A stretch of 59,561 nucleotides of DNA, filler included, from Stramenopiles sp. TOSAG23-6 (lineage: Eukaryota): NCBI GenBank assembly GCA_900128565.1. It is 11 parts of 11 records of this genome, joined end to end, with 100 filler letters (N's around TTAATTAATTAA, not from the genome) between each part and the next. Parts side by side here need not be neighbours in the genome. Positions count along the whole stretch, not along the records: positions 16,309 to 21,640 come from LT636927.1; 10 more parts are not named here. One strand, 5' to 3'. The translations under genes and the position numbers were made by a program. Numbering within the stretch: the first letter of the stretch is position 1; every line of letters begins with the position of its first letter. The notes under the pieces were generated by a model, which made no database searches, was not told the DNA's origin, and saw only the letters and a list, made by a program, of their open reading frames with translations. Shown here piece by piece: positions 5,255 to 33,361 of this stretch.

Positions 5255-5336
5255 ATGTATTGTAAAAAAATATTTTTTTTTTGTAATTTTTTTGTTAGGT
5301 ACAAAATTTTTATAAAAAACCAAAAAAAAAAAAAAA

Positions 5337-5436
5337 NNNNNNNNNNNNNNNNNNNNNNNNNNNNNNNNNNNNNNNNNNNNTTAATTAATTAANNNNNNNN
5401 NNNNNNNNNNNNNNNNNNNNNNNNNNNNNNNNNNNN
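5337..5436. other. Artificial contig spacer (also 10773, 16209, 21641, 27066, 32489, 37906, 43323, 48739, 54153; each 100 bp)
   Basis: N44-TTAATTAATTAA-N44 with stops in all six frames. Confidence 0.98.
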
Positions 5437-5500
5437 TAGGTACAAAATTTCGTACGAAAAAAAAAATTTAGACAAAAAATTGAAAAAAAATAAAACATAC

Positions 5501-6857: not shown

Positions 6858-7064
6858 ATGGACGTTAACGAACTTGTATTCAAACCTCTCTTCCAATTCG
6901 GTTTAGATTCGTACCGCCTGGTTCAAAAATGCACCAAGCCAGACCGCACTGAATTTACCCGTGTATTTTTCGCTACTAGCTGTGGGTTCTTTATTATGGG
7001 ATTTATTGGTTTCTTTGTCAAACTTGTTCATATTCCTATAAATAATATTATCGTAGGGCGTTAA
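6858..7064 (+). CDS. SEC61G: Sec61 gamma (duplicate contig)
   Basis: Identical copy. Confidence 0.95.
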
Positions 7065-7472
7065 AACACATGTGAAAAAAAAAAAAAAAAAAACAGGATT
7101 TTTCGTACGAAATTTCGTACCTAACGAAAAAAAAAATCGACGTCTAGTCTATCCTTTTTTTTTTGTGATTATTTGATAAATAAACAACACTCTAGAGAAT
7201 GTAGAGACATTATTTTATACTATGTATATATATACATGATACACAAGGAAAATAGCAACATGAAAAGAATGTATATCAACATGAAAAAAATATATATTTT
7301 ATTACACTTCATTTAAAAGTACAACAAGGATAATCAACCCTAACCCTAGTACAAAGACATTCATTGTAGGGCTAGTGGCCTCTTTTTGAGTACTCATTTT
7401 GTGTAATGAGTTCATTGTGTTACTTTATATGTTTTAGATATAATAGATTTTTTCTATGTTACATTCTCCAAA

Positions 7473-9221
7473 TTATACATTTTTGGACGTTTCTTCCATT
7501 TCAATGTCAAAGTCGTCAGGTACATTTCTCAAAATCCAGCGGTCAATTTCATCTTCCATGTCGTCTTTGTCGTGTATCGAAATATCTCCAACTTGAGCCG
7601 CTCTTTGTGCTTTCAACTTCTTCGCTTCCTCTTCAAAACCCCGGACAGAACGCATATGACTTGTTTCGTTTACTTCAGTCAAGAATTCCTTTATTTTGTG
7701 TGCTGTTGGTGTGGTCGGTCGTAGTGGACTTTGTTCCAATGAACTTTCCAGCGCTGCATTACTATTCTTGAGAACAGTTTTATCAGAAAATGTAGATGCA
7801 ATTGCACGATCAATACCTAAAACATGACCACCTAATATATTTCCGACGGCATCACCACGTTCAATAGGTAAATACAACTGCGAATCAATTGGGTTGGAGT
7901 GGGTATCAAAGTCAAGAAATTCGGAAATTACAGTATCCGATATATCACTAAAACTATCATACTTTTTCATAGGATTAGATACACTAGATAATATAGCTCG
8001 GGAGACAGAAAACTCCATTTGAAGACATTCTGCAATGGAATATTCTACTTTTTTACAACCCCCTATACGTTGCATTGCGTGAGTTAGTTTTAGAGCTAGA
8101 GGGGAACGCTCATGGAGTAACACTTGAAGAGTTTGACTCGCCCAGTCAGCTAACGAATCGCCTGCAGAACCTGAAGCAAGTTGTTCCAATTGTTCGATAA
8201 TTTCCTCAATACTGTCTTGATTGAAACAAGTATCAATTAATTCTAAATGATTTGACAACCAAGTCTCTGGTATAACTGCAGTATCACCTGTAATAGTGTC
8301 TCCATGCGTACCGTATGAAATTGCAGTATCAAAACTGGCTTCAACTAGGCAATCTGCTAGTGTTGAGTTCATACGACTTGATATATTATCAATATCGTCT
8401 CTAAGAAATCCTATAGAACCACTTAATACGGGTGTGTAATGCGTGGCAATACCAGTATGAAGAGCATCCGCTCCAGTTACCCGGGCCCCTGTTAACGATA
8501 ACCATAGACCTATACCAGACATTCGATCTTCATTACCACGAAACTGAAGTCGAGGAAGATTATATGATGCACCCATATCTGGTATCCATCCTATTTCTGT
8601 CTCTGGTAATTGAAATATTGTCTTATCAGTAGCAATGCGAACACGATTTAATAAGGAAAGTGAAGCGGCAGACCCGGATGTTAAGCCATCAAGAAGTGTA
8701 ATCACTGGTGTCCCGGATGTCGCTAAACGATAGCTAAGATAATTCTCCTGTCTTAATATGTCAATAGCTTTATCCAATGAACCATTTTGTACCATTTGTA
8801 CGAGTGCAGGATGATCACGGCCTCTACAAAACACATCAGAACGTTGGTCATTGCTTCCTTGATAACCACCAAGGAAAATAGCCAAAATTTGAGAATTTGG
8901 TTCCCAAAGTTCATGAAGGCGTGTTAGTTGCTGAACGGTAGAAAGATCAAGAACATTATCTCCATTGTTCGTATTTACTTCTGCCATTCTCCATGTAGCA
9001 TTCCCTTCGGAAATTAGAACCTTCTCGTCTGATCGGAAAGGTTGTCGGACAACTTCTTCATCGCGAGATGAGAGAAGACCACGAGACAGAGGATGTTTTT
9101 CTTCATCTTTGTTTGTGTCTATATTACTCGTACTGAAACTACACGATGATAAAGCTGTCGAGTGACGTAAGTGTGATGCGGATGTGCGCGTAAATGTTCG
9201 AACTAATTGTGTGGAAGACAT
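7473..9221 (-). CDS. HIBCH-like protein (duplicate contig)
   Basis: Identical copy. Confidence 0.85.
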   Translation of the reverse strand: MSSTQLVRTFTRTSASHLRHSTALSSCSFSTSNIDTNKDEEKHPLSRGLLSSRDEEVVRQPFRSDEKVLISEGNATWRMAEVNTNNGDNVLDLSTVQQLTRLHELWEPNSQILAIFLGGYQGSNDQRSDVFCRGRDHPALVQMVQNGSLDKAIDILRQENYLSYRLATSGTPVITLLDGLTSGSAASLSLLNRVRIATDKTIFQLPETEIGWIPDMGASYNLPRLQFRGNEDRMSGIGLWLSLTGARVTGADALHTGIATHYTPVLSGSIGFLRDDIDNISSRMNSTLADCLVEASFDTAISYGTHGDTITGDTAVIPETWLSNHLELIDTCFNQDSIEEIIEQLEQLASGSAGDSLADWASQTLQVLLHERSPLALKLTHAMQRIGGCKKVEYSIAECLQMEFSVSRAILSSVSNPMKKYDSFSDISDTVISEFLDFDTHSNPIDSQLYLPIERGDAVGNILGGHVLGIDRAIASTFSDKTVLKNSNAALESSLEQSPLRPTTPTAHKIKEFLTEVNETSHMRSVRGFEEEAKKLKAQRAAQVGDISIHDKDDMEDEIDRWILRNVPDDFDIEMEETSKNV

Positions 9222-9558
9222 AATCACACCAACTTGTTGAATACACTACAAAAGTAATCTGGATATTTTAGTTTTGTTGTGTGTGTTTGCGACTGACTTT
9301 TGATTAATTCTAATGCGCCACGTGCTCGAAGTTAAAATTTTTGACTCGTGTGTTACCCGGTTCCAAAAATAAAGCTGCTTTGATCCATTGAATTCAGATC
9401 GTAAACCGTAAAATAAAATTGACAAAAAAATGTCATAAAAATTAAATACTACTACGTCAAAGACCGAAAAGACTATTTCCCTGTAAGGGGTAAAGACATA
9501 CACAATACATACAGTAACATTATTTAAATTCACTTCATTTTGAGCAATATTTTTAGCC

Positions 9559-10086
9559 ATGAATGGTCAAATCATGTTTTTCTATCTCTTCATTTTGGGA
9601 TGGATCAGTTCTAGTGCAATACACGTTGAAAAGAATTATATTTGTTTGAATCACAATGAAAATCCTGATAATACTTGCTCTGTTCACAAAGACAGAATTT
9701 CTTGTACGTCTTCGTATGATACAACACATAAGAAGTGTTTATATGTGTATAGAAAAGCCGCACAATTAAATGAAACATGTTGTCCAAATAAGAAAGAAGA
9801 TAATGGGAAATGCGCCGAAAAAATAGGTGGTCTACAGTGTGATGCAAATTTGTACTGCTACGTTTCCACTTTTCGTGGTGACGTTGGCACCTGCGTCTTA
9901 CGAAGCAGTGTTGCTTTTATTGGCCAGACATGTTGCAAAACAAAAACAGAAGTATGTACAGCACCACACTGTGCGTCAGGATTGACTTGTTATTCTAGCC
10001 CATCTTTTTTTGGTACGTGTGGTCGATCGTTTCCATCTCTTCGAAGTCGAAATGGAGAAAACAGTACACTATTTTCCTGGTTTTGA
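9559..10086 (+). CDS. Secreted cysteine-rich protein (duplicate contig)
   Basis: Identical copy. Confidence 0.7.
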   Translation: MNGQIMFFYLFILGWISSSAIHVEKNYICLNHNENPDNTCSVHKDRISCTSSYDTTHKKCLYVYRKAAQLNETCCPNKKEDNGKCAEKIGGLQCDANLYCYVSTFRGDVGTCVLRSSVAFIGQTCCKTKTEVCTAPHCASGLTCYSSPSFFGTCGRSFPSLRSRNGENSTLFSWF

Positions 10087-10936
10087 ATTTAAAAAAAAAA
10101 TAATACTAGAGAACTGTGTGTAACAAGATCGTTACAATCCCAATATACATTGGATAACTTGGAAGCTTGTGCATTTGTATACAAAATGATAAAATAATAC
10201 ATTTGCAACTTACATTTCATTCAAATTTCATATTTATTCTTTTATCCTTAGGGTTAGGGTAAAAAGACACATCAGAGGGAAGAAAGATTATTTCTCTCTG
10301 GTGTTTTTTTTCCCTTTACATTATCTATGTGGTTCATTTTGGAACTGTAGCTAGATTGCCTACAATGCAACATAAAGAAAAAACAACAAAAACAAATTTA
10401 AATTTAAATTTAAATTTTTTTATAAAACAATTAGAAAAAACAAAAACAAATTCATTTATTTTTGTATTTTTGTATGTAACAATTAGAAAAAACAGAAATA
10501 ATAAAAACAAAATTAAATTTTTTTTTAATTCACAAATCAACATGTTAACATAATGTTTAAGTGGTCAAGTTTTACACTTCACAAACAAAAAAAGAACAAA
10601 AAAAATACAATTTTTACATTTTGTCATTTTTTTTTGGACATTACAAATTTTTATTGAGTTTCTAATATTTTTGTTACAATACCAGCCGCAATGTATTGTA
10701 AAAAAATATTTTTTTTTTGTAATTTTTTTGTTAGGTACAAAATTTTTATAAAAAACCAAAAAAAAAAAAAAANNNNNNNNNNNNNNNNNNNNNNNNNNNN
10801 NNNNNNNNNNNNNNNNTTAATTAATTAANNNNNNNNNNNNNNNNNNNNNNNNNNNNNNNNNNNNNNNNNNNNTAGGTACAAAATTTCGTACGAAAAAAAA
10901 AATTTAGACAAAAAATTGAAAAAAAATAAAACATAC

Positions 10937-11621
10937 ATAGTGTCGATGGACTGGAACTGGGGGGTAATTCCCCTAATAGCAAAGTGGTAGAACAAGAAAT
11001 AGAATGAGACGTATGATTATTTTGAAGACTTTGTGATGTGTGATTATTTTGAAGACTTTGTCTTTGTTTCTTTTGCTTCTTTTGAATGTATTGCGTTTGT
11101 TGATTTTGTTGATTTTGTTGATTTTGTTTAGTAGGGATTGGACTTTTGTTTTGAAAAGAAGAACGTGCGAGTACAGTACGTTGCTGATCGGAAAAAGAAG
11201 TGGGCTTATAATTGGTTGACTCGTTATGTAGAGAATACCCCTTGTGTATGTTATATTGACGCTGGTTCGTTACTCTATTCATATTTGAGGGGTCGTTTTC
11301 CTGAGAATATTGTCTCGGTGACGTTTGCATGGCATACACATGGTTCCCTCCGAGATGTTTCTGAGAAGATTTTGCAGAAAAACCATACCCGTTTGTAGAT
11401 CTTTCAGATTCAATAGATCCATTATTGGCATGTAATTTCGGTCGATAACTCCAAGATCGTTGCGTTGATGAGTTGGACTTTCCAACGCTTCGTTGTAGAG
11501 GAGACAAATTTTGGAAATGACGCTGATCTGTTTCATATTTTATATTACCTTGCTCCTGTTGAAGAGGACGAGAAAAAGTTGTTGGTTGAACTACTCCTTT
11601 CTCTGCATCATGTGTTGACAT
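10937..11621 (-). CDS. Third copy of 65-749 hypothetical protein exon
   Basis: Identical copy. Confidence 0.6.
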
Positions 11622-12293
11622 GATATTCTATCGTTTGGATAGAAAATGTAATGTTCTTTTTCAACAACACAATACTTTACTATAGACAACGTCAATAAAA
11701 TATACTCAAAATAGTAAAAAGGCGCGATGTTTACGAAACTTGGTTCAAAAAAAATTGCGCAAGTTTTTTTTTTGAGTTATTTTTGAGTTATTTTGAAAAT
11801 AATTCAACAAAATTTTGGAACAAACCTGAGACGCCAATTTTTAGCTCTCCTAGGGTTAGGTTAGGTGCCTAGGGTTAGGGTTCCTGGTGTTTTGGTCAGC
11901 CCTTCATTTTTTTTTCGCGAAAAAAATTCAACTCTGTGTTTCTGCTCTGCGCACGAATTTTCCTTCAACGTAGACCTTTTTTCTATCACTCAAGGAGTAC
12001 GTAATTCTCTTAATTACTTTATTATTATATACATCATCGATTAACTTATCTTGTTGACGATCATTTCATTGATTCTTAAGAAGAGTATGATTGTCTTTCC
12101 TTGTTTTTTTGCAATTTGTTTTTCTTCATGAACCAAGTCATGACTTTCTTCCTCCGTTTTGTTGTCGTGTCTGTTTTTCGGTTTGAACCTGGCATTCTTT
12201 CCTTTGATATAGTGTTTTTTTACTCTAGCATTTCACAGTGTATGTCTAACCCTTTCCAAATTTCTTATATTCTGAAAAAGCAGTACTCTTACA

Positions 12294-12500
12294 ATGGACG
12301 TTAACGAACTTGTATTCAAACCTCTCTTCCAATTCGGTTTAGATTCGTACCGCCTGGTTCAAAAATGCACCAAGCCAGACCGCACTGAATTTACCCGTGT
12401 ATTTTTCGCTACTAGCTGTGGGTTCTTTATTATGGGATTTATTGGTTTCTTTGTCAAACTTGTTCATATTCCTATAAATAATATTATCGTAGGGCGTTAA
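12294..12500 (+). CDS. SEC61G: Sec61 gamma (third copy)
   Basis: Identical copy. Confidence 0.95.
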
Positions 12501-12908
12501 AACACATGTGAAAAAAAAAAAAAAAAAAACAGGATTTTTCGTACGAAATTTCGTACCTAACGAAAAAAAAAATCGACGTCTAGTCTATCCTTTTTTTTTT
12601 GTGATTATTTGATAAATAAACAACACTCTAGAGAATGTAGAGACATTATTTTATACTATGTATATATATACATGATACACAAGGAAAATAGCAACATGAA
12701 AAGAATGTATATCAACATGAAAAAAATATATATTTTATTACACTTCATTTAAAAGTACAACAAGGATAATCAACCCTAACCCTAGTACAAAGACATTCAT
12801 TGTAGGGCTAGTGGCCTCTTTTTGAGTACTCATTTTGTGTAATGAGTTCATTGTGTTACTTTATATGTTTTAGATATAATAGATTTTTTCTATGTTACAT
12901 TCTCCAAA

Positions 12909-14657
12909 TTATACATTTTTGGACGTTTCTTCCATTTCAATGTCAAAGTCGTCAGGTACATTTCTCAAAATCCAGCGGTCAATTTCATCTTCCATGTCGT
13001 CTTTGTCGTGTATCGAAATATCTCCAACTTGAGCCGCTCTTTGTGCTTTCAACTTCTTCGCTTCCTCTTCAAAACCCCGGACAGAACGCATATGACTTGT
13101 TTCGTTTACTTCAGTCAAGAATTCCTTTATTTTGTGTGCTGTTGGTGTGGTCGGTCGTAGTGGACTTTGTTCCAATGAACTTTCCAGCGCTGCATTACTA
13201 TTCTTGAGAACAGTTTTATCAGAAAATGTAGATGCAATTGCACGATCAATACCTAAAACATGACCACCTAATATATTTCCGACGGCATCACCACGTTCAA
13301 TAGGTAAATACAACTGCGAATCAATTGGGTTGGAGTGGGTATCAAAGTCAAGAAATTCGGAAATTACAGTATCCGATATATCACTAAAACTATCATACTT
13401 TTTCATAGGATTAGATACACTAGATAATATAGCTCGGGAGACAGAAAACTCCATTTGAAGACATTCTGCAATGGAATATTCTACTTTTTTACAACCCCCT
13501 ATACGTTGCATTGCGTGAGTTAGTTTTAGAGCTAGAGGGGAACGCTCATGGAGTAACACTTGAAGAGTTTGACTCGCCCAGTCAGCTAACGAATCGCCTG
13601 CAGAACCTGAAGCAAGTTGTTCCAATTGTTCGATAATTTCCTCAATACTGTCTTGATTGAAACAAGTATCAATTAATTCTAAATGATTTGACAACCAAGT
13701 CTCTGGTATAACTGCAGTATCACCTGTAATAGTGTCTCCATGCGTACCGTATGAAATTGCAGTATCAAAACTGGCTTCAACTAGGCAATCTGCTAGTGTT
13801 GAGTTCATACGACTTGATATATTATCAATATCGTCTCTAAGAAATCCTATAGAACCACTTAATACGGGTGTGTAATGCGTGGCAATACCAGTATGAAGAG
13901 CATCCGCTCCAGTTACCCGGGCCCCTGTTAACGATAACCATAGACCTATACCAGACATTCGATCTTCATTACCACGAAACTGAAGTCGAGGAAGATTATA
14001 TGATGCACCCATATCTGGTATCCATCCTATTTCTGTCTCTGGTAATTGAAATATTGTCTTATCAGTAGCAATGCGAACACGATTTAATAAGGAAAGTGAA
14101 GCGGCAGACCCGGATGTTAAGCCATCAAGAAGTGTAATCACTGGTGTCCCGGATGTCGCTAAACGATAGCTAAGATAATTCTCCTGTCTTAATATGTCAA
14201 TAGCTTTATCCAATGAACCATTTTGTACCATTTGTACGAGTGCAGGATGATCACGGCCTCTACAAAACACATCAGAACGTTGGTCATTGCTTCCTTGATA
14301 ACCACCAAGGAAAATAGCCAAAATTTGAGAATTTGGTTCCCAAAGTTCATGAAGGCGTGTTAGTTGCTGAACGGTAGAAAGATCAAGAACATTATCTCCA
14401 TTGTTCGTATTTACTTCTGCCATTCTCCATGTAGCATTCCCTTCGGAAATTAGAACCTTCTCGTCTGATCGGAAAGGTTGTCGGACAACTTCTTCATCGC
14501 GAGATGAGAGAAGACCACGAGACAGAGGATGTTTTTCTTCATCTTTGTTTGTGTCTATATTACTCGTACTGAAACTACACGATGATAAAGCTGTCGAGTG
14601 ACGTAAGTGTGATGCGGATGTGCGCGTAAATGTTCGAACTAATTGTGTGGAAGACAT
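12909..14657 (-). CDS. HIBCH-like protein (third copy)
   Basis: Identical copy. Confidence 0.85.
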   Translation of the reverse strand: MSSTQLVRTFTRTSASHLRHSTALSSCSFSTSNIDTNKDEEKHPLSRGLLSSRDEEVVRQPFRSDEKVLISEGNATWRMAEVNTNNGDNVLDLSTVQQLTRLHELWEPNSQILAIFLGGYQGSNDQRSDVFCRGRDHPALVQMVQNGSLDKAIDILRQENYLSYRLATSGTPVITLLDGLTSGSAASLSLLNRVRIATDKTIFQLPETEIGWIPDMGASYNLPRLQFRGNEDRMSGIGLWLSLTGARVTGADALHTGIATHYTPVLSGSIGFLRDDIDNISSRMNSTLADCLVEASFDTAISYGTHGDTITGDTAVIPETWLSNHLELIDTCFNQDSIEEIIEQLEQLASGSAGDSLADWASQTLQVLLHERSPLALKLTHAMQRIGGCKKVEYSIAECLQMEFSVSRAILSSVSNPMKKYDSFSDISDTVISEFLDFDTHSNPIDSQLYLPIERGDAVGNILGGHVLGIDRAIASTFSDKTVLKNSNAALESSLEQSPLRPTTPTAHKIKEFLTEVNETSHMRSVRGFEEEAKKLKAQRAAQVGDISIHDKDDMEDEIDRWILRNVPDDFDIEMEETSKNV

Positions 14658-14994
14658 AATCACACCAACTTGTTGAATACACTACAAAAGTAATCTGGAT
14701 ATTTTAGTTTTGTTGTGTGTGTTTGCGACTGACTTTTGATTAATTCTAATGCGCCACGTGCTCGAAGTTAAAATTTTTGACTCGTGTGTTACCCGGTTCC
14801 AAAAATAAAGCTGCTTTGATCCATTGAATTCAGATCGTAAACCGTAAAATAAAATTGACAAAAAAATGTCATAAAAATTAAATACTACTACGTCAAAGAC
14901 CGAAAAGACTATTTCCCTGTAAGGGGTAAAGACATACACAATACATACAGTAACATTATTTAAATTCACTTCATTTTGAGCAATATTTTTAGCC

Positions 14995-15522
14995 ATGAAT
15001 GGTCAAATCATGTTTTTCTATCTCTTCATTTTGGGATGGATCAGTTCTAGTGCAATACACGTTGAAAAGAATTATATTTGTTTGAATCACAATGAAAATC
15101 CTGATAATACTTGCTCTGTTCACAAAGACAGAATTTCTTGTACGTCTTCGTATGATACAACACATAAGAAGTGTTTATATGTGTATAGAAAAGCCGCACA
15201 ATTAAATGAAACATGTTGTCCAAATAAGAAAGAAGATAATGGGAAATGCGCCGAAAAAATAGGTGGTCTACAGTGTGATGCAAATTTGTACTGCTACGTT
15301 TCCACTTTTCGTGGTGACGTTGGCACCTGCGTCTTACGAAGCAGTGTTGCTTTTATTGGCCAGACATGTTGCAAAACAAAAACAGAAGTATGTACAGCAC
15401 CACACTGTGCGTCAGGATTGACTTGTTATTCTAGCCCATCTTTTTTTGGTACGTGTGGTCGATCGTTTCCATCTCTTCGAAGTCGAAATGGAGAAAACAG
15501 TACACTATTTTCCTGGTTTTGA
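14995..15522 (+). CDS. Secreted cysteine-rich protein (third copy)
   Basis: Identical copy. Confidence 0.7.
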   Translation: MNGQIMFFYLFILGWISSSAIHVEKNYICLNHNENPDNTCSVHKDRISCTSSYDTTHKKCLYVYRKAAQLNETCCPNKKEDNGKCAEKIGGLQCDANLYCYVSTFRGDVGTCVLRSSVAFIGQTCCKTKTEVCTAPHCASGLTCYSSPSFFGTCGRSFPSLRSRNGENSTLFSWF

Positions 15523-16308
15523 ATTTAAAAAAAAAATAATACTAGAGAACTGTGTGTAACAAGATCGTTACAATCCCAATATACATTGGATAACTTGGAA
15601 GCTTGTGCATTTGTATACAAAATGATAAAATAATACATTTGCAACTTACATTTCATTCAAATTTCATATTTATTCTTTTATCCTTAGGGTTAGGGTAAAA
15701 AGACACATCAGAGGGAAGAAAGATTATTTCTCTCTGGTGTTTTTTTTCCCTTTACATTATCTATGTGGTTCATTTTGGAACTGTAGCTAGATTGCCTACA
15801 ATGCAACATAAAGAAAAAACAACAAAAACAAATTTAAATTTAAATTTAAATTTTTTTATAAAACAATTAGAAAAAACAAAAACAAATTCATTTATTTTTG
15901 TATTTTTGTATGTAACAATTAGAAAAAACAGAAATAATAAAAACAAAATTAAATTTTTTTTTAATTCACAAATCAACATGTTAACATAATGTTTAAGTGG
16001 TCAAGTTTTACACTTCACAAACAAAAAAAGAACAAAAAAAATACAATTTTTACATTTTGTCATTTTTTTTTGGACATTACAAATTTTTATTGAGTTTCTA
16101 ATATTTTTGTTACAATACCAGCCGCAATGTATTGTAAAAAAATATTTTTTTTTTGTAATTTTTTTGTTAGGTACAAAATTTTTATAAAAAACCAAAAAAA
16201 AAAAAAAANNNNNNNNNNNNNNNNNNNNNNNNNNNNNNNNNNNNNNNNNNNNTTAATTAATTAANNNNNNNNNNNNNNNNNNNNNNNNNNNNNNNNNNNN
16301 NNNNNNNN

Positions 16309-17289
16309 ATTATTACATTGCAAAAGGTATCATATTTGAAGATGACAACTTTTCGAGAATTCGAAGTATGTTAACTTCTGGTGGAAAGAGTGGAAAAGAT
16401 AGCAAGAATTATTCTTCATTGAATGATTATGAGTGGTTACATAAGAGCCATAAGCATAAACGTGCAATTCTTCGAACAGTTCACAATTATGTAAATTATC
16501 ATGTTCATGCAAATATTCTTGAAGATGAGTTTCTTGAGTGGCTGCCCTCAGTGAATGCTATGGCAATTGTAATGGCAGTTCGTCGTGATTTGGGTTTTTA
16601 TCCTTGGCGAAAAGAATTCGATGTACGTGTTCATCATTTACTTGAATTTTTGTTTTTTGATACAAAATTATGTACCTAACGAATTTTTTTTTTACGAAAA
16701 AAAAAAAATATTTTTCACAATATATGAACTCTCCGGGCATAAGCATACAGCTGTATATGAAAGTGCTTGTAGAGTATGGACATTACACCAAAAGCGTAAT
16801 AATAACCAAATACGACGGAGATTGCCGCCTATAAAAGCACCTATGGAGGAGGATGAGTCACCTCGAAGCATTGGTGCCATCGTAGATTTAGATTCAACAT
16901 CACCAACAAAGACAAAGACAAATAAAAAGACTAAAGCATACTTGAGTGATCAAGAAACAAACCGAAGGCTTCATCAAAAGGATTCTACGATATACGGACA
17001 AATTTCATTGAAGTCAAATGAAAAATATAGTCATTCAAATACAAATTGCTCAGAGAATAGTAATAATAAAAGACCAAATAGAAAACAATCTTATTCAAAA
17101 GTAACAAGCAACTCATCCGGAGTGGTTGTTGAGCCTAATGCTGTAACAACTACTGCATCTGTTAAAAGTCGACAACGACAACGATGCATCCCTCAAGATT
17201 CCCGGAGAGCTGTATATAAGTCACGTAGAAAAAGTCGCGGACTACTAATGATGCAAATATCAAAGCGGTCACGTGGTAAAGGCAGGTAA
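16309..17289 (+). CDS. Cyclin-family protein, C-terminal part (exons ..16622, 16726-17289)
   Basis: EFLEWLPSVNAMAIVMAVRRDLGFYPWRKEFD|ELSGH resembles the Cyclin_C fold. Confidence 0.7.
16623..16725 (+). other. GT-AT family intron (103 bp)
   Basis: GAT|GTACGT...GTACCTAAC...CACAATATAT|GAA restores frame. Confidence 0.8.
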
Positions 17290-17460
17290 ATCATTTCATT
17301 GCATTTTACAATAAATTCATGATTAAAATATTTTTTTAGAATTTGTTTATAGTAAAAAATGATTTGAAAGATCGTTTTCTCTCAGTTACAGTTGTACAGT
17401 CTACGATGTATCCATAAGTTGAAACACTATTTTGATTCGATTTTTTTTTGTTTTTTTGTT

Positions 17461-19089
17461 TTACTGTTTTCCTTTTTTCTTCTTTTTCGCCGCGTTCATT
17501 AGCATGTTCTCACGGTCAATCATGTGACGTGTTTTTTGCATTAGACTCAATAATTCAGTGGTATCGTTGCTCCAATCGTTGAGAATTGTGTTTGCATCCT
17601 CTGGCTGGCTAAAAGAAATGACACCTTTTGGTCTATCAATACGGGCAAACAGAGGCATACATTCCTCATTTGTTGGACAAACCATGTCACAAACAACTCG
17701 TTCCGCTTTAGCCTCATCCAACAGCAATAATTGAGCCAATCGGTTTGTCGAAATACGTGAATAATACTTAGATACAATTCGCACATTGTGCTGTAATATT
17801 CGTAAATGGAGCATTTCAGCCCACTTTGCAGAAAGGTCTTTCCAAACGGCAGTGTTAGTGAATACAGAATGCTGTTGGAGGTCAGATTGATATGGCAAAG
17901 GCCAAGGAGCATATATTGTGAAAAATATTTCTTTTTTGGTTTACACATTCGTTAGGTACAATATTTCGTATGAAAAAAAAATACATTTGAAATTCGATTT
18001 TTGAAAACGTACAATTTCAGAGTCTGAAAAATGTTTCAATAATTGCTTCATAGAAGCCACATTTGGATGTTCCAGACGAGTTGCTTGCATTTTTTGAAGA
18101 GTATGTAACATTGTATTTTGTTCTACACCAAACTCCGATAAAACACAAAAGATGCAAGCGTGACTAAGAGCCTCTTGCCACTTTGTAGAATCCTGTAAAA
18201 TTGACGGAGTATTCAATATTCCGACATAATCCCTGCACAAGCTTAACGTTTCAGCCATAATTGTATGATATTCAATGAGTAAGTTGTAATATTTTAGCTT
18301 TAATTCTTGGAATTCTTTACCACATAACACCTTCTTATCGATTTTTTTGGCAATGATAAATGCGCGGTCATGATCTTTTTTAGCGAGACAGAGACGTACT
18401 TGTTCTAAGATGAAAGCAGTTTTCTCCAATTTGTCCATGGTCCCATATGTTTCCACCTTAACTTCTTGAAGAATATCTGCAGCTTCGACGATTTTGCCCT
18501 CATCTTCACGGATTGAGGCAAGACGTTTTGTAAGTCTAGCACGCTCGACTTCGAGAAAAATCTTTCCTTCCGAAATTTCACGAAGAGTTGTTATGAGTCT
18601 CAATTCTTCTTCTTTACTTTCTTGTCGCGCATTGTCAAGTTCAGCGATACCTTGTTTTGCGATTTTACCTATTACCTTGCGATGCTGTTGTCGACGTTTA
18701 GAAATAACAACGAGGTTGACGTTTATCGCGTCCCAGTCATGTACTGCGATACATAACTCCATGAGAAGGGCACAAACCTCAACAGATATATCAAACTCCA
18801 TCGCAGACCGAGTCTTCTTTTCCAATTTCAACAACAAATCTATCGCCGACTGGAGCTCTCCGGTTGATGCAAGTGTTTTGGCTTCGATTGCAGTACTCGC
18901 CCACTCGGGGCCAAAGTCTTTTTTCTTTATAACCAACTCAGGTGCCCCAATACCTCCGCGATCTGTTTTTTTGGACATCTTGCGGAGCATATCATAAACA
19001 GACAAATCTTTCTCACGCTGAGATTTACCCTCATCTTGAGCATCACTAACAGGAACCTCTATTGGTATTTCTTGGCCTGGAGTAGCCAT
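17461..19089 (-). CDS. PSMD12: 26S proteasome lid subunit RPN5/PSMD12 (exons 19089-18013, 17910-17461)
   Basis: LLKLEKKTR, EGKIFLEVERARLT, VETYGTMDKLEK, HNVRIVSKYYSRI, ARIDRP motifs. Confidence 0.96.
17911..18012 (-). other. GT-AT family intron (102 bp) in RPN5
   Basis: ATT|GTACGT...GTACCTAAC...CACAATATAT|GCT gives FSDSEI-APWPLP; contains an in-frame stop. Confidence 0.85.
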
Positions 19090-19197
19090 TTGTTACACTT
19101 GCGCAGCAAATAAGGAATTTCACTCGACTTAGAATAATCGATACGATGATGAGAGATTGAAATTGATGTCGAAGGAAGAAGCCTCTCAAAATTAGCC

Positions 19198-19213
19198 GTT
19201 AGGGTTAGGGTTA
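19198..19213. promoter_or_regulatory. (TTAGGG)n telo-box-like motif in the divergent RPN5/AP2A promoter
   Basis: GTTAGGGTTAGGGTTA in a 261-bp head-to-head intergenic region; similar motifs at 978-1010. Confidence 0.3.
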
Positions 19214-19350
19214 TGAGTCAAAAATTTGGAATACTGTACGTGTAAAAAAAATGCGATAAATTTCGTCGAAAATAGAGTGGACCTACGCACACACCGATTG
19301 TGTTCAAATTAATATTGATTTGTAAACTTCTTGGGGATTAGTATATCACA

Positions 19351-21563
19351 ATGGCTTTTCGCGGCTTAACAGTGTTTATTTCAGATTTGCGAAATTGCAA
19401 GTCGAAGGAAGCGGAAGTTGAACGCGTAGATTTAGAAATGGCAAATATTCGAAAGAAATTCACGTCTACAAAGAAGAAGCTCGACGCGTACAACCAGCAA
19501 AAATACGTTTGGAAAATGATGTATATGTGGATGTTGGGATATGAAGTTGATTTTGGACACATGGAAGTAATAACACTCATGAGTTCAACAAAGTTCTCTG
19601 AAAAAATGGTTGGATATTTGGCAACTTCAGTACTAATTACTCAAAATGACGAGTTAATGACACTAATAGTTAATTCTGTTAGGAATGATTTAACGAGTGG
19701 TGTAGCATTGAGCCAAGGTCTTGCTTTATCATGTATAGCAAACTTGAGTTTCCCACAGATGGCAGAAGCAACAAGGGAAATTGTGTACAAAGTACTTACT
19801 GCACCAGAGGCTTCTGGTGCCTTGAAAAAACGTGCGGCGCTTTGTCTTTTACGGATCATTCGTGTCAGCCCTGACTACGCTGAGTCTTTTCCCCGTGAAT
19901 GGGTTCCAGTAATTGCAAAAATGATGGAAAGCCGTCATTTAGGTCTTGTTACTTGTGTAGCGGCTCTACTGCTTGGGCTTATTTCTCTTGACTTTAAATC
20001 ATGTACATGTGCTATACCAGGCGCAATTCTAGTACTAGAAAAGTTAGCATTGGCTCGAAACAATATACCGTCAGATTATATGTATTATGTCACACCTAAT
20101 CCATGGCTACAGATCAAACTGCTAAAAATCTTACAATATTATCCAAAACCAACTGATACGGTTCTCTCTAACAAAATTATTAAAGTTCTTCAACAAATCC
20201 TTAAGAAGACTGTGGTGACGAAATCTGTAAACAAAAATAATGCGGATCATGGCGTCTTGTTTGAAGCAATTAATCTAATTATTCATTATGGTGGTGAAGG
20301 GTCTTTACGTAAAAAAGATGGACTTAAATTGAAGGCTGTAAAATTACTAGCACGATTTATGCAAATTAAAGAGCCAAATATCCGATATCTCGGATTGGCT
20401 ACCATGTATGTTTTATGTTTTGAATTTCGAAGTTAGTTTTTTTTTCGTACGAAATTTTGTACCTAACATTTTTTTTTTTTTTGAATTTCGAATTTATTTT
20501 TCCACAATACATGTCTCGCTTGGCTATGCTAGAGGGAACCAGTGAACATATCAAAAAATATCAAGGTGTCGTTATCCACGCGTTGAAAGATGCAGATATT
20601 TCCATTCGGAAAAGAAGTTTAGATTTGTTATTTGTGATGTGTGATGAATCAAATAGTGATACGATTGTTCAAGAGTTGGTGGAATATTTAGGTTCAGCAG
20701 ATATAAATGTACGTTTTATTTTTTTTTTTTACTATGAATTTTTTTTTCGTACGAAATTTTGTACCTAACGAATTCTTGTTTTTTTTTTTGAAATATTTTT
20801 TCACAATACATATTCGTCAACAAATGGTTTTGAAAATTGCGATTCTTGCGGAGCGTTTTGCTCCTGACCATAAATGGTACATAGATACAATTTTACGAAT
20901 TATTAATACTCATGGCGTCGATGTAGCAGATGATGTGTGGCATCGCTGTGTACAGATTATTAGCAATCATGAAGCTTTGCAAAGTTATGCGTCCGCAACT
21001 GTTTATGATGCTCTACAGCCTGTTCATGTATGTTTAATTTTTTTTTTTAACAAAAAAATCGAATTTATTTTTTTCAAAAAATTTTGTACCTAACGATTTA
21101 TTTTTGAAATATTTTTCCAAAATACATGTGCCTGAAGCTGTGATTAAAGCAGGCTCTTATATCTTGGGTGAGTATGGATATTTGTTAGCCGATCATGATG
21201 ATCAGAATATATGCGTCAGTGGAGCTATGCAATTTGAAACTTTACATCAGCATTTTGATCAGTGTACGTCTCAAGCAAAAGCAATAATGATACACACTTA
21301 CATTAAGATGGCCAACTTATATCCTGAGGATACTATTGATGGTGAATTGTTAAAAGACCGAGTCAAAGGTGTGTTAGAATATCATAGAAGTAGTTGGAAT
21401 ACTGAAATACAACAGCGTTCAAATGAATATGTAACTTTATTAGATGATGATGAAAAACTTCAATTAAGTTTAGATCAAATGCCTCCTTTTCCTGCTGATA
21501 AAGTTTCAAACTTAGTATTGATTCTTAGAGATCAACAGGAAAAAACTAGTGACAAAAATGCAT
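19351..21563 (+). CDS. AP2A: AP-2 complex subunit alpha, 3' partial (exons 19351-20405, 20513-20708, 20812-21027, 21128-21563)
   Basis: RGLTVFISDLRNCKSKEAE, VDFGHME, EPNIRYLGL, DADISIRKRSLDLL, LKIAILAERFA, YILGEYG, EIQQRSNEY. Confidence 0.97.
20406..20512 (+). other. GT-AT family intron (107 bp), AP2A intron 1
   Basis: ACCAT|GTATGT...CACAATACAT|GTCT gives LGLATM-SRL. Confidence 0.88.
20709..20811 (+). other. GT-AT family intron (103 bp), AP2A intron 2
   Basis: AAT|GTACGT...CACAATACAT|ATT gives ADIN-IRQQMVLK; no AG anywhere in the intron. Confidence 0.88.
21028..21127 (+). other. GT-AT family intron (100 bp), AP2A intron 3
   Basis: CAT|GTATGT...CAAAATACAT|GTG gives ALQPVH-VPEAVIK; no AG anywhere in the intron. 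Confidence 0.88.
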
Positions 21564-21796
21564 GTATATTTTATTTTTTTCAAATTCGATTTTTTTTTCG
21601 TACGAAATTTTGTACCTAACAAATTTTAGTTTTTTTTTTTNNNNNNNNNNNNNNNNNNNNNNNNNNNNNNNNNNNNNNNNNNNNTTAATTAATTAANNNN
21701 NNNNNNNNNNNNNNNNNNNNNNNNNNNNNNNNNNNNNNNNTTTTGTACCTAACAAATTTAAGTTTTTTTTTTTTGAAATATTTTTCCAAAATACAT

Positions 21797-24304: not shown

Positions 24305-25708
24305 TTATTTTTTTTTATTTTGTTCAACACAAACAAAACATAAAGTAACTGCTTTGATAAATCCCAATTGTAATGCCATTTGTTTTCGAGGCGCACATTG
24401 TTTACATATTAAATATCCACATTGTCGACAATGATGTATTATGAAAAAATATTTTTTTTGTAATTTTTTTTGTTAAGTACAAAATTTCGTACGAAAACTA
24501 AAAAAAAAAAATAAATTTGAAATTGAAAAAAAATAAAACATATATGACGTCTACGAAGTAATGTAAAATGATTTCCACATCTCATACAATTTTTACTATT
24601 TGCATCCGACACCCAACTACGTTTACGTGATTTCGTGTTTTCATTTAATTTCGTGTTGTTTTGTAGATTTTTTGTTGTTTGTTGAATTTTTTGAATTTTT
24701 TGAATTTCACTACCTCTATTACTACCATCTATACTATTACATTTTATACGATTATCTGTTGTACTTTTCATTGAATATTTTATACTATCATAATTTTTTT
24801 TATTAGGGTTAGGGCTAGGGTTAGGGCTATTGTGTACTATTTTTTTTTTCATAGAGGAAATTTTTTTACGATATGTTTCTGCAGCATTTGACATATAATC
24901 ATATTTATGACTATTTACTCTATCATTATTACTTTTAAGTGTATTTTCAAACGTAAATGGTGGTGGAGGAGCATGTGAGGCCATATACTGAGAAAAAGCT
25001 AAATTACCACCACACGAAATCATTAATTGAATATGTTGAAGAAAAAATATTTCAAAAAAAAAAAATTCAGAATTTTTGTTAGGTACAAAATTTCGTATGA
25101 AAAAAAAATTATGAAAAAAAAAAATAAATTCGAAATTGAAATGAAAAACGAACATCGTCTTTTGTCCAATTATCAAGAGTTAATGACTTTACTATACTAA
25201 TATGTACACCAAGTGATCGATGATATCCTGCACAATGTGTACATAGTAAAATACCATGTGAAAAAGATGCCCATTCAGGTTTTTTTTTCCCACAGTCTAC
25301 ACAAGAGTCATTTCCTTTCATTTTTGTAATTGATGTTGTACTTTTAACATTTTCATCTATAATTCCTACACGATTTGTAGTTTGTAACATTGAATCCAAA
25401 GAATGAAAACCATGTGCTGTTAACTGTACCGCACACTTCTTACATACTCGTTGTTGACCTAAATAACCAGGAACATTAATTCGCTTGGAAGAACAAGAGT
25501 CACAAAATACTTTACCACACGCACGACAATGATGACGTCTTCGTAACAAGTTAAATGCTTGACCACAAGTTCTACAATAATGAGCTTTAGAATCTGATTC
25601 CCAATGACCAATCTTAAATTTTGGTTTTGTAAATGTAGTGGCTGGTGGGGTTGATGAAGAACTCATATGAAATGAAATAATACTGGTGTTTACAAATTGT
25701 AATAGCAT
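24305..25708 (-). CDS. FYVE-ArfGAP-FYVE protein (exons 25708-25154, 25032-24544, 24433-24305)
   Basis: WxxD..RRRHHCRACG FYVE; CVDCG..PEWAS..CTHCAGYHRSLGVHIS ArfGAP; second RRRH|HCRQCG FYVE. Confidence 0.9.
24434..24543 (-). other. AT-AT family intron (110 bp)
   Basis: CAT|ATATGTTTT...GTACTTAAC...CATAATACAT|CAT restores the invariant RRHHCR. Confidence 0.8.
25033..25153 (-). other. GT-AT family intron (121 bp)
   Basis: GAT|GTTCGT...TTCAACAT|ATT gives LDNWTKDD-IQLMISCGGN. Confidence 0.82.
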
Positions 25709-29101: not shown

Positions 29102-31654
29102 ATGATGACGTTAATAAACGTAATCATATATATAGCACTTACAATACAAGTAATAGTTATAGCCTGTAGTATATATAAGATGTATATAACACATTATCAT
29201 GTGTACACTTGGCCAAATCGGTTAATTAAACGGACACAATTATGGCNTCTTCTGTGGCAAAATGAGAAAGAAAAGATTCGATTCTATAAAAACAATTTCA
29301 AAATATTTTTGAATCTGATAGCAAGTGCTTTAAGTATAATTATGTGTATCATTATGGCTACAACTGGTATTGAAATTGCTTCTAGTANTCCTACAATTTC
29401 AAATGTAGGAAATAGAAATAATTCTGAAACAAGTGNTCTTGAAGACAATGTAGGTTTCATTATTTTTTTTGTGGTAATTTTTTTTTTCGTACCAAATTTC
29501 ATACCTAACAAAAATTTGATTTTTTTTTTTTACATTTTTTTTACAATACATATTTTTATAGTTTATTTTTGTAGTAGTTCCATTGTTTGGTTATTGATAG
29601 CTATACAGATTAGACTTGAATTTATGAATTTTCAAAATCCAACAGGCAACTGTTGGATTTTTTGGTGTGTTGATGTTTTTAGTCAATTTTTAATTTTTTA
29701 TGTACTGCATAAATATAATAATAGAGATGTACTAGGGTTAGGGTTGTTGAATAGTGTAGAATTGTGTAAAATATTGATTTGTATTTTACTTATAATTATA
29801 CATTTTTTTACGATGAATGATATAGAAAATGGTTTATCAGTAATGTTTGAANATGAATCCACAGGAGATATTCATATATTTATTACTGGAAGTACTTTAT
29901 ATAATGTGATATCAAATACACAAAACCCTAACCCTAATGAAGGCATGCAATACTCTCGTTTAGGTGACTTCTCAAACCCTAGTAGTAACCCTACTGCTAC
30001 GATAGACACTACGATGATGAATTCTAGATATTTTGATGAAGCTAGAAAATCCGCTTTGATTCGTAAGCATCGGAATATCAATGGAATAATAAATAGGTCA
30101 GTACAAACAATGAATACACGAAATATCAAATGTATTGAGGATTTACAAAGAGACCTTTATATTCAAGACACAGTACAAAAAAATAGACAAAAAAAAAACA
30201 TTAACCCTAACCCTAATAATAAAAATAATAAAAATAATAAAAAAAGTAAAAATAATAAAAATGAACGAATACACTATAGAAATGATGGAGAAAAAATTGA
30301 GATGAAATTTTCTGATTATGAGAAACAAACAGACGCAGCAGAGTGTGGGTTAGGGTTAGGGGTTTTGCCCTCTTATGCTTTGCCGTATTCTTTAGATGAG
30401 ATAGTAAACCCTAACCCTAATACAAATAGAAGCAAAATATCATCATCAAATACAAATAGAAACAAAATATCATCATCAAATACAAATAAAAACAATACAT
30501 CATCATCATCATCATCAAGTGGTTGGTATAGCAAAGAAAAGTTCGTACCAAAAGATGATTATGTTGAATCACAAAAGCAAAAGATGGACGTATTTATTGA
30601 TATGTTTTCATCATTCATTTTCATTTCAAATTAATTTTTCAAATTTTTTTACATTTTTTTTTCATATTTCGTTTTGTATTTTGTATTTTTTTTATCTAAC
30701 AAATGTTTAATTTTTTTTTCAAAATATGTCTTCACAATACACATGTTATACACAGTGCTAGTCAAAGATGTTTAGTCGCAGGATGGCTTATCAAGTGTCA
30801 AGGGAAAAAATTGTCTTTAAATACGATAGAAAATAATGATCGAGTTTCAAATGGTAAAAAAGGTGTATGTTTATATAAATTTCTAATGTAATACTTTTTC
30901 ATACGAAATTTTGTACCTAACATTTTTTTTTNGAANTATTTTTTCACAATACATCAAGATACATTAAATCAATTTAAACAAAGTTATGATAAGGGTAGTC
31001 GTCGATGGTATGCTGTCCATGTACGTTTTTATTTATGATGTTTTTTTTAAATACAAAATTAAAAGACTTTTTTACATCAACGTTTTTGATTTTAATTTTT
31101 TNACTTTAATGATTAAAACNTAACTTAAAATTAAGACACACACTATCTAACAAAAACAAAATTAAATTTGATATTTGACTACACTACATGGTAAATATTT
31201 GTTTGGTTTTCTCTCTCCTGGGATTTGGAGGCATTGGATTCAAAGATGTCGTACAAATTGTAGTAGTTGCAATATACAAGAAATTGCAACTATTCCATTA
31301 TACATAATTGAATTTAAACCAGAATCAAAAGCAAAATTTACATTTGATCATAATGTNTCTGACCCAACTTTTGCGAATAGGGTTTCATTTGGAATACTTC
31401 AAATTCAAAATATAATAAATGTACGTTTTTCAATGATGTCAACCATTGATACCATAGAAAATAAGCAAAACAATAATGATAATGATAATAGTACTTTTAT
31501 TGCTGAAAATGAAAATGACTTTATGAAATTTGCAGAATCTTTTGACACAGCCATTGATATATCANAAGAAGAAAAAAANAGTATACCAATTGATATATCA
31601 AAAGAAGGAAAAAAGAGTATACCAATTAGTATATCAAAAGAAGAAAAAAAATAA
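29102..31654 (+). CDS. Multi-pass membrane protein with C-terminal PH-like domain (5 exons)
   Basis: Hydrophobic N-terminal segments; spliced VAGWLIK...SRRWYAVH|GKYLFGF is PH-like. Confidence 0.65.
29450..29551 (+). other. GT-AT family intron (102 bp, in-frame, stop-free)
   Basis: AAT|GTAGGT...ATACCTAAC...TACAATACAT|ATT. Confidence 0.7.
30600..30742 (+). other. Family intron with AT-AC ends (143 bp)
   Basis: G|ATATGTTTTCATCATT...TATCTAAC...CACAATACAC|AT; both ends align with family consensus and keep frame. Confidence 0.55.
30865..30954 (+). other. GT-AT family intron (90 bp)
   Basis: GGT|GTATGT...CACAATACAT|CAA. Confidence 0.75.
31021..31189 (+). other. GT-AT family intron (169 bp, diverged)
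   Basis: CAT|GTACGT...TATCTAAC...CACTACAT|GGT gives RRWYAVH-GKYLF. Confidence 0.75.
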
Positions 31655-31714: not shown

Positions 31715-32392
31715 TTATTTGCTATTTGTGCTATATAAAGAATCACCAACATCAGAATCAATATCGCAATCATCATCATCAACATCATCATCAATAGTAT
31801 CGTCAACAGTACCATTCGGATTCTTTTTTTTCTTTTTACTATTTGTATACATTAAATCCGTACCTTTTTTTTGTTTTCTTACAATAGAATGAATAGGTCT
31901 ACCTAAAGGCTCCACAAATCCAGTCCAAACATCGTCACGAATTTCACTTGGTAATGACGTCTGTAATAAAGCTTGAAAAAAAGGTCTTCGAGGTTCATTT
32001 TGTTGAATAATACTTCCGTCAACAGCTAATCGTGTTTCGTTTTTTGAACGAAAATGTCTCCAACTAAATGCCCAAACATTTAATGTAAAAAAAATTTAAA
32101 AAACAATTTAAAAAACTGTTAGGTACAAAATTTCATTATACTGTTCTTTTACAATTTAAAAAAATTTAAAAAATTTAAAAAAATTTAAAAAAAAAGACGT
32201 ACATGAGCAGTTGCTACTAAAAGCATTTCGATTGTAATGAGCCAATCTTGTAACATTGAAGATATTTCGTGTTCATTGTAATGCTCAGTACTTTGTATAA
32301 GACCAATTGCACTCAATACTGATATAGCTAGTCCTTGCCACCATGAAAAGAAAACAACAAATTTTACACAACAAAATTTTCCAAAAGGTTGA
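31715..32392 (-). CDS. TMEM184: TMEM184/OST-alpha family transporter, 3' part (exons 32392-32203, 32077-31715)
   Basis: PFGKFCCVKFVVFFSWWQG...LQDWLITIEMLLVATAH|VWAFSW (not in ORF track). Confidence 0.88.
32078..32202 (-). other. GT-AT family intron (125 bp)
   Basis: CAT|GTACGT...GTACCTAAC...ACATTAAAT|GTT restores AH-VWAFS. Confidence 0.8.
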
Positions 32393-32588: not shown

Positions 32589-33220
32589 AGAGACAGGGTG
32601 AAATGGTTAAAGTCACAGATGTGCCACCTAGTTGGAAGCTGGCATCTGTAGCAACCACTAAACAGCCAAAAGTTGAAATAAAACATGAATCTTCAATTAT
32701 TGCAAAACATGATGTCCCGATATTGAATAAGGCTCAACAAGTAGTTAAAAACAAATCCAACTCAAGTGCAAATGACCACCAAAAAGTTAAAGACGAATTC
32801 AACTCAAGTGCAAATGACCAACAAGTAGTTAAGAACGAATTGAATTCAGGTGATGAACGTGCTTGTAATATCGATAATGAAATATTATTACCACGTGTAA
32901 AAACTATCATGCGAGAAATGTTGAAAACCCTAATTTTAGCTGCAGATCTTTCATCGACCACAGGACGAATACTCAGGAAAACTTTACAGAAGGAATATGA
33001 AAGTTCTAGTGAATTGTCTAGGTACGTTTCCATCATGATTTTTTCATACTCGATTTTTTTTTCGTAAATTTATATACACCTACTAATAATTTTTCTTTCA
33101 TTTATTTTTGCACCATATATGATCCAAATCATCAACTGGGAGAATCATTCAGTGAAAATGTTCATCAGAAATCAAATTAGGGAACTAAGTGCTGAAGTGT
33201 TTAAAAAGAGTGATGCTTAA
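32589..33220 (+). CDS. Protein with C-terminal DEK_C-like domain, 5' partial (exons ..33021, 33121-33220)
   Basis: LILAADLSSTTGRILRKTLQKEY...KMFIRNQI. Confidence 0.7.
33022..33120 (+). other. GT-AT family intron (99 bp; copy at 38439-38537)
   Basis: AG|GTACGT...TACTAAT...CACCATATAT|G; the first downstream AG gives an immediate stop. Confidence 0.75.
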
Positions 33221-33361
33221 AAGTATAGTATAGTTTATTTAGTCAAATATCAAGATAAATTTTCAATATATCATTCATATAGTTTTATAAATTGTGCTTT
33301 ATCAAATATTTCATAGAATTTTTTGTACCTAACATTTTTTTTTCCTTTTTTGAGTCTTCCA

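Follow-up and report, generated by a model that had tools for sequence, protein, structure and literature searches.

The gene RPN5 (PSMD12) lies on the minus strand of a 59,561-nt stretch of DNA from Stramenopiles sp. TOSAG23-6, hereafter the window, which is composed of 11 contigs of about 5.3 kb each with N spacers between them. The contig that carries RPN5 (G000:C2032) belongs to an assembly of 21.1 Mb in 6236 contigs, many of them duplicated. Assembly artefacts also occur within the window: the first three contigs repeat one another (1-16208), contigs 7 and 8 are duplicates (32589-43322) and the last contig is identical when read on either strand (54253-59561).

The RPN5 gene and its intron

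Exon 1 of RPN5 (18013..19089, minus strand) contains 359 codons and ends in E-I. Exon 2 (17461..17910, minus strand) encodes the PCI and RPN5_C domains and includes the stop codon, and Pfam recognizes PSMD12-CSN4_N, PCI and RPN5_C in the protein. Between the exons lies an intron of 102 nt (17911..18012, minus strand), a GT...AT copy of a repeated intron family, with the sequence AATT|gtacgtttt...ttcacaatatat|GCTCC. Donor, branch motif and 3' box are arranged as ATT|GTACGTTTT...TGTACCTAAC...TTTTTCACAATATAT|GCT. At the 5' splice site, ATT|GTACGTTT (18005..18015, minus strand), positions +1 to +8 are the exact complement of U1 nucleotides 1-8. The branch-site motif TGTACCTAAC occupies 17951..17960 (minus strand), with a putative branch A at 17952, 42 nt before the 3' end, and the 3' box TTTTTCACAATATAT (17911..17925, minus strand) supplies a Y-A-T acceptor.

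The junction ATT|GTACG...TATAT|GCT is present as had been described, and its two flanking dinucleotides are unlike, TT on the exon side and AT at the intron end. Slides of -1, 0 and +1 produce identical mRNA (E-I-A-P-W), with which all three are equally compatible, so that cDNA cannot separate them at this junction. A slide of -2 gives a TT..AT intron and converts E-I to E-N, as the original prediction stated. Among the best 120 of 369 homologs, the corresponding column holds L in 69, I in 38, V in 8, a gap in 5 and N in none; all 115 ungapped homologs thus carry L, I or V, and no indel is found there. The conserved residues support the GT register at RPN5.

A family of similar introns

Position-weight models, from which the last two intron bases were left out, were used to search about 0.68 Mb (the window, L001-L010 and L018-L077) and returned 177 copies, of which 154 passed a frame filter and 23 were dropped. 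In a held-out 232 kb, searched with models that additionally ignored +1, +2, -4 and -3, 26 copies were found and 22 kept; 19 of these 22 were GT-AT, none ended in AG and 20 started with GT. Among the pooled 176 frame-supported copies, 160 start with GT, 151 end in AT, 2 end in AG and 138 are GT..AT. The family introns are 76-172 nt long (median 100), with a median of 42 nt from branch A to end (177 copies), and many similar copies sit at unrelated gene positions, as introners do. When the 177 copies are removed at the length defined by the motifs, the shorter side has a median of 74 open codons, compared with 14 and 17 when the length is changed by one base in either direction. Genome-wide, the branch motif plus 3' box is followed by YAT in 3681 cases and YAG in 163, duplicates included, and the reversed control pattern has no match. 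The search is anchored on family motifs, and therefore unrelated older introns cannot be counted.

Conservation at the donor is high (G+1 94%, T+2 97%, G+5 95%, T+6 99%, with +1 and +2 being part of the anchor). On the acceptor side, 98% of copies have C or T at -3 and 91% have A at -2. The YAG end expected of U2-type introns is rare in the family (AT 151, AG 2 of 176), which is thus not one of canonical GT-AG introns, though it is U2-intron-like in its working. The GT-AT rule as originally proposed describes the 151 of 176 copies ending in AT but is too narrow, since the remaining 25 end in TT, GT, AA, AC, AG, GC or TA; copies ending in TT, GT, AA and AC sit in long open frames. Because ends such as TT, GT, AA and AG also occur, the rule is better written as GT...AY-NN, mostly AT. 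One GT..TT copy falls exactly between conserved residues 194 and 195 of yeast pyrophosphatase, with no in-frame AG within 30 nt and no AT within 15 nt; it failed the frame filter, and its assignment rests on homologs. Starts other than GT are also found among the 177 copies (AT 9, GC 4, GA 2), and because these keep the frame, the first intron bases are probably read loosely as well. Examples are located at L021 2403, at L034 6950 and in the window at 24434..24543 (minus strand, AT|ATATGT...ACAT). At L039 7483-7678, a TBC domain is interrupted by two adjoining copies (AT, element, AT, element, AT); YQQGMNL is restored only when both are taken out, and taking out the first recreates a donor, in the manner of recursive splicing.

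Five junctions of the window had been put forward to break the tie between GT-AT and AT-AC. All five are found in the sequence, and the statement that GT-AT fits all of them and AT-AC none is literally true. Of these, RPN5 alone tests the slide itself, and the other four do no more than exclude an AT-AC pair in the literal sense. The cyclin intron (16623..16725, plus strand, 103 nt, AT|GT...AT|G) ends in TATAT, and the TMEM184 intron (32078..32202, minus strand, 125 nt, AT|GT...TAAAT) belongs to a gene with the Pfam family Solute_trans_a; a shift of -2 turns them into AT..AT and AT..AA, respectively, with unchanged mRNA. The intron at 33022..33120 (plus strand, 99 nt, AG|GT...ATAT), on a contig present twice in the window, becomes AG..AT upon the same shift, the two registers predicting Arg and Met. 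The name DEK_C given to its gene was not confirmed, as Pfam reported 0 families on the 73-aa piece. The intron at 30865..30954 (plus strand, GT|GT...ACAT) is weakly informative because its -2 slide (GT..AC) and a +4 slide (GT..AG) both preserve the frame, and it was dropped as a tie-breaker.

Further family introns of the window include three AT|GT...ACAT copies on the plus strand (20406..20512, 20709..20811 and 21028..21127) in a gene that we take, from its sequence, to be AP-2 alpha-like, one copy reading AT|GTAGGT...ACAT (29450..29551, plus strand) and a member with a canonical end, AT|GT...TATAG (49308..49428, plus strand). Two minus-strand copies, at 48540-48631 and around 32393, possibly have AG ends (CTAAG, ATATAG); at 48540-48631, no join free of stops could be identified. 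Branch-motif sequences that are not followed by the usual 3' box occur at 1660-1700, 33300-33400, 43600-43700 and 53170-53260, and are possibly decayed or non-intronic copies. Telomere-like TAGGGTTAGGG / CCCTAAC boxes are also seen in intergenic DNA of the window (19198-19213, 24800-24830 and 30200-30420). One lies in the divergent gap upstream of RPN5, and such boxes resemble the end of the branch motif.

U1 snRNA and other spliceosome components

The U1 snRNA of this genome begins AAACGUACAUG. Its 5' end, as set by the model, is AAACGUACAUGG compared with AUACUUACCUGG in the Rfam consensus, the changes being U2A, U5G and C9A. The candidate is full length, has an Sm site and scores 54.1 bits (E 8e-12), below the Rfam cut-off of 69.5. 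The family donor consensus is C-A-T|G-T-A-Y-G-T-T-T (35, 74, 88 | 94, 97, 95, C47/T53, 95, 99, 99, 98%) and departs from the canonical donor at -1, +4 and +7. U1 nucleotides 9, 5 and 2 face these three positions and carry the complementary base at each, a coincidence whose odds, by simple arithmetic, are about 1 in 165 multiplied by 1 in 27. Averaged over 154 introns, the Watson-Crick pairs formed by this U1 number 9.2 of 11 in the GT register and 3.3 in the -2 register, compared with 6.9 for a canonical U1, and the median duplex energy is -9.7 in the GT register versus -1.9 kcal/mol at -2. Shifted U1 registers exist elsewhere (PMC13326754), so pairing alone is no proof of the cut; the U1 pairing agrees with the protein tests of the register. 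A search for a second, canonical U1 gave 24 matches to the 10-mer versus 21 for the control, and the two sites that were inspected did not resemble U1 by eye.

The genes for U5, U2, U1 and U4 lie head to tail at L011 9-645 (G000:C1146), separated by spacers of 2, 23 and 5 nt, an arrangement suggestive of a single precursor transcript; U6 is on C3740, away from this cluster. The U2 GUAGUA, U5 loop 1 and U6 ACAGAGA sequences are canonical. The family branch motif TACCTAAC, which was also a search anchor, lies a median of 42 nt before the intron end and is able to base-pair with U2 GUAGUA. Introns of the U12 type carry the donor RTATCCTT and the branch motif TCCTTAAC. The U12-type motif ATATCCTT is also given in PMC5029451. 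The window contains 0 matches to TCCTTAAC, the family donor being GTAYGTTT instead of the U12 type, and U11, U12 and U6atac were not found in this incomplete genome.

Components detected were U1, U2, U4, U5, U6, Prp8, Slu7, Isy1, Cwc15 and a weak zf-U1, together with a U2AF65-like protein recognized by eye below the family cut-off. When nine protein families were searched by name, Prp18, Cactin, Luc7 and SF3b1 were not found, and U2AF35 was not among 16 CCCH matches. Because the essential SF3b1 was missed too, the missing Prp18, Cactin, Luc7 and U2AF35 are not counted as evidence. Prp8 is encoded at L094 3589-9651 (G000:C84) in a frame of 2021 codons that has no family intron, and its alpha-finger motif LTNAQR is intact. 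It differs at 47 of 1220 near-invariant columns (about 6 of them beside an N run), compared with a median of 0.5% and a maximum of 4.0% among 94 homologs. Its private changes cluster at its own residues 879-886, 975-1021 and 1365-1420, and one cluster maps to human residues 1246-1254; this divergence is taken as a lead only.

Target duplication and transposon origin

Where the dinucleotides are not AT, the exon-side dinucleotide equals the intron-end dinucleotide in 15 of 54 cases, compared with a mean of 1.3 and at most 7 in shuffles, and the third base is not duplicated. Because two bases repeat and the third does not, the element can be delimited as GTAYGT...AATAC, and the intron as the element plus one copy of the 2-bp repeat. 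Target flanks lean towards C before and G after, and dinucleotides besides AT are duplicated too. In the consensus, terminal inverted repeats span only about 4-8 nt, with the short ends GTAT/ATAC. The family is MITE-like and duplicates 2 bp of its target. In copies whose ends are mismatched, divergence is only slightly higher than in AT/AT copies (p 0.022) and in matched non-AT copies (p 0.11).

Genome-wide, 24 copies follow an AG exon end (with a pattern blind to ends containing C), and 18 remain after 6 duplicates are dropped: 10 end in AT, 7 in AG and 1 in GT. AG ends are therefore found in 7/18 copies after an AG exon side versus a background of about 4%, and AT ends are common even at AG targets, as 10/18 such copies end in AT. 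Selection, gene conversion among copies or an AT borne by the element could each give rise to AT at AG targets.

An autonomous partner was sought through the DDE_Tnp_4 family, and two distinct elements were found, with ends unlike the intron ends. One of them, at L105 502-3610 (G000:C2432), is Harbinger-like, contains two ORFs, has 28-bp inverted repeats that do not resemble the intron ends, and carries a family branch motif inside. Searches for relatives with the U2-U1 cluster and intron core patterns gave 0 matches in metagenome contigs, and the intron core pattern gave 0 in viral contigs, collections from which near-identical records may be left out. ISL2EU, of the PHIS superfamily, also has a 2-bp AT target duplication, with A|AT|T as its target (PMC4482050), and a DDE transposase with a YqaJ partner. 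Membership was rejected, as the flanks here lean towards C before and G after, other dinucleotides are used too, and the search of DDE_Tnp_4 yielded neither an element with matching ends nor a matching transposase.

Proposed mechanism

The best explanation, to which we assign a probability of roughly 0.9, is that MITE-derived GT...AY-NN introns are removed by the major (U2) spliceosome with a fitted U1. A small non-autonomous DNA transposon (GTAYGT...AATAC, ends GTAT/ATAC) would have given rise to a genome-wide family of introns of about 100 nt by inserting with a 2-bp target duplication, mostly at AT, and the major spliceosome would remove the element body together with the downstream two bases. 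U1 (AAACGUACAUG; U2A, U5G, C9A) is predicted to pair with CAU|GUAYGUUU in the ordinary geometry, with the cut before GU, and canonical U2 and U6 would use the TACCTAAC branch motif and the YGU at +4 to +6. Exon ligation would occur after Y-A-U, about 42 nt past the branch A, at a position that frame, homologs and one RNA contig establish.

In the P complex of yeast, the pairing partner of G(-1) is G(+1) and that of A(-2) is the branch A, and the pyrimidine at -3 is read by Prp8 Gln1594 (10.1101/212811). Here the second step would keep the Y(-3) and A(-2) contacts and lose the G(+1)-G(-1) pair. Of the 3' site contacts, only that at -1 is changed as judged from the introns and Prp8, the -3 Y, the -2 A and LTNAQR being kept. 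The last two bases may be tolerated loosely (TT, GT, AA, AG), with drift or conversion towards AT, even at AG targets.

Alternative explanations

It is also conceivable, though we find it doubtful, that the preferred end of the major spliceosome itself has switched from AG to AU. In that case, the proto-splice site would have changed from AG|G to AU|G at both ends, U1 C9A would be causal, with U1 reading the acceptor too, and AU would be as good as or better than AG. A hint is provided by the 10/18 copies at AG targets that end in AT rather than in the canonical AG that they would have inherited. U1 changes are said, in the title of Reich et al. from 1992, to suppress 3' site mutations in fission yeast, U1 nucleotides 9-10 reportedly being those involved. 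However, the pairing of this U1 with the acceptor is weak (median -2.9 kcal/mol), and therefore reading of the 3' end by a long U1 duplex is unsupported.

A highly improbable reading is that the introns leave by a non-spliceosomal route, either through inverted-repeat pairing and another enzyme or through DNA excision in part of the population. Inverted-repeat pairing has been proposed for the non-canonical introns of euglenids or Amoebophrya; here, inverted ends and direct repeats are present, the family consensus folds with its ends paired, and TT, GT and AA ends fit the known 3' site contacts poorly. Against this, the RPN5 copy folds no better than shuffles (z 1.19), the core spliceosome parts are present, and neither the strictness of the branch motif and its fixed distance nor the fit of U1 to the donor would be accounted for.

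Evidence from RNA counts in favour of the proposed mechanism, and its want of a DNA control in favour of DNA excision. Runs with RNA matching parts of G000:C2032 are seawater and plankton metatranscriptomes, and RNA contigs from 4 of the 12 listed runs were compared with 16309-21640. In the polyA run X5, record 25 covers 16567-16620 and 16724-16837 at contiguous record positions, and hence lacks exactly 103 nt, the length of the cyclin intron. The registers compatible with it are AT..AT, TG..TA, GT..AT and TA..TG; AG and AC ends are impossible. This support consists of one contig at a depth of 3.5, from one run with no DNA run beside it as a control, and the contig is absent from the joint table. 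Run X1 has one unspliced contig that passes from exon into intron. Most RNA pieces on 16309-21640 are other copies of the family repeat, and among the pieces listed none bridges RPN5 or another informative junction.

Slimmer still is the probability that the cut lies 2 nt further upstream, giving NN...AC introns (mostly AT-AC) that either belong to the minor spliceosome or are AT-AC introns of the U2 type. Since 115 of 176 copies carry AT on both sides, mRNA cannot tell GT-AT from AT-AC in these; after the slide, 89/176 copies would read AT..AC, compared with 138/176 that are GT..AT. After the slide the intron would end in T-A-C, which likewise fits Y-A-C, and modelling suggests that a pair between A(+1) and C(-1) is tolerated (10.1101/212811). 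However, the U1 described above pairs with 3.3 of 11 bases in that register, the ATATCC donor is absent, U11, U12 and U6atac are not among the RNAs found in the incomplete genome, and the RNA-supported cyclin intron would be AT..AT. When the two repeat copies differ, AT is located at the intron end in 36 cases and on the exon side in 7 (p 9e-6). For MFSD5 (L062 3380), G is found in 8/8 ungapped rows of 9 homologs and the slide would give M; for DENN, 116 aligned of 150 homologs include R in 36, K in 43 and H in 1; and in the amino-acid transporter of L074 the slide would create a stop inside Aa_trans. The four junctions that homologs or a stop can test (RPN5, MFSD5, DENN and Aa_trans) all favour the GT register at the level of the predicted proteins, and AT-AC fails at each. 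In MTR4 (G000:C6191), the junction reads L-F-G-E-G-L-I-K, the slid residue Cys is absent from all 21 alignments, and the homolog residue is presumably Gly; this probably adds a fifth junction in favour of GT. The original claim of a GT register is therefore backed by homolog residues (RPN5, MFSD5, DENN), a slide-made stop, the asymmetry of mismatched copies and U1 complementarity. A second stop case, at L077 5439, was set aside as probably mis-anchored. A test for synonymous changes in the exonic repeat copy gave no signal (4/32 synonymous versus 11% expected), and PDB searches for DENN and the transporter returned nothing useful.

Least credible of all is that these are canonical GT-AG introns whose AG lies close to the predicted end. 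In favour, YAG stands at the family position in 163 copies, and some in-frame GT..AG option exists for 97/154 copies when the donor may move by up to 9 nt and the acceptor by up to 30 nt (22/154 if the donor is kept and the AG is no more than 12 nt away). Against it, taking the first AG downstream of the branch motif preserves the frame only at the chance rate (50/154), the sole AG within 30 nt in RPN5 ends at -20 and out of frame, homologs align without an indel at RPN5, MFSD5, DENN and pyrophosphatase, and the RNA contig lacks exactly 103 nt with no AG register.

Comparison with known systems

Non-canonical introns derived from introners and removed by the major spliceosome are a known kind, and the fitted U1 sets the present family apart. 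The introns of Fritillaria borealis and F. pellucida have a transposon origin, with TIR and TSD, and are spliced by the major spliceosome with no minor one, much as proposed for the present family, whose inverted ends are short and whose genome yielded no U11, U12 or U6atac; they also share a YAY 3' end that is repeated just upstream of the donor, and their commonest 3' end is AT (34% and 44%) (PMC13326754; PMC11282704). However, Fritillaria donors are mostly non-GT and very diverse (AG/AC 18%, AG/AT 16%), whereas a strict GTAYGTTT is found here, and the U1 5' end of Fritillaria is described as unchanged, the change being put on duplicated U2AF and m6A (PMC13326754). In the present genome, by contrast, one family dominates and U1 itself is changed. 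The introners of Micromonas pusilla likewise consist of many similar short introns with TIR-like ends, in which the element supplies the donor and the target duplication the acceptor; IE1 has a 3-nt TSD giving canonical AG, in contrast to the 2-bp TSD giving AT here (PMC11282704; PMC12130899). In an introner survey from 2025, introns are expected to have AG or AC at the 3' end (PMC12130899). Amoebophrya introners resemble this family as repeated introns with inverted and direct repeats and non-GT-AG ends, occur like it in a genome for which no minor spliceosome was detected, but are reported to have no dominant end signature, direct repeats of 3-5 nt and a U1 that was not detected (PMC7789003).

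Fitted U1 snRNAs are also known. In Entamoeba, the U1 5' end complements an atypical donor (AACAAAC for GUUUGU), and in Mastigamoeba balamuthi (ACGUAC for GUACGU) a U5G change reading the +4 C is identical to the one described here; the changes reported for both concern intron positions only (10.1101/2022.06.08.495308). Here, U1 nucleotide 9, facing the last exon base, is changed as well (C to A), alongside a non-AG acceptor. With regard to the acceptor, the major spliceosome of Saccharomyces cerevisiae lacking Prp18 ligates after H-A-U, helped by upstream U tracts, and HAU is among the commonest non-YAG acceptors in that strain, activated after strong U tracts; it is a minor error of the mutant, whereas here it would be the normal acceptor of thousands of introns (PMC10711555). 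Searches for literature on GT-AT introns, or on intron splicing in MAST-3 single-cell genomes, found none in a collection with few subscription papers; introner lists published as supplements to PMC12130899 and PMC9860276 may be relevant to how new this family is.

Implications

In this marine protist, the three donor-fitting changes of U1 suggest that splicing has been rewired around a mobile element as it spread. The conservation of GU/AG across eukaryotes is attributed to the G-G pair that joins the two terminal bases of the intron (10.1101/212811), and thousands of GU...AU introns, in genes that include RPN5, MTR4 and pyrophosphatase, would be a natural experiment on this step. The three-change U1 would moreover be a case of a core snRNA that evolves alongside an element invading the genome, a course not followed by F. 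borealis (PMC13326754). Two old questions can now be tested: whether target duplication or selection by U1 lies behind the bias at exon ends, and whether the acceptor is read by U1. Gene finders miss such introns: a public gene model that matches one gene of this genome without a difference over 201 aa, and whose label begins GSMAST3 (a hint at a MAST-3 stramenopile), reads through into the intron. The model concerned, P0242, runs into the first intron of a transporter gene at L062 2775-4340 without splicing it.
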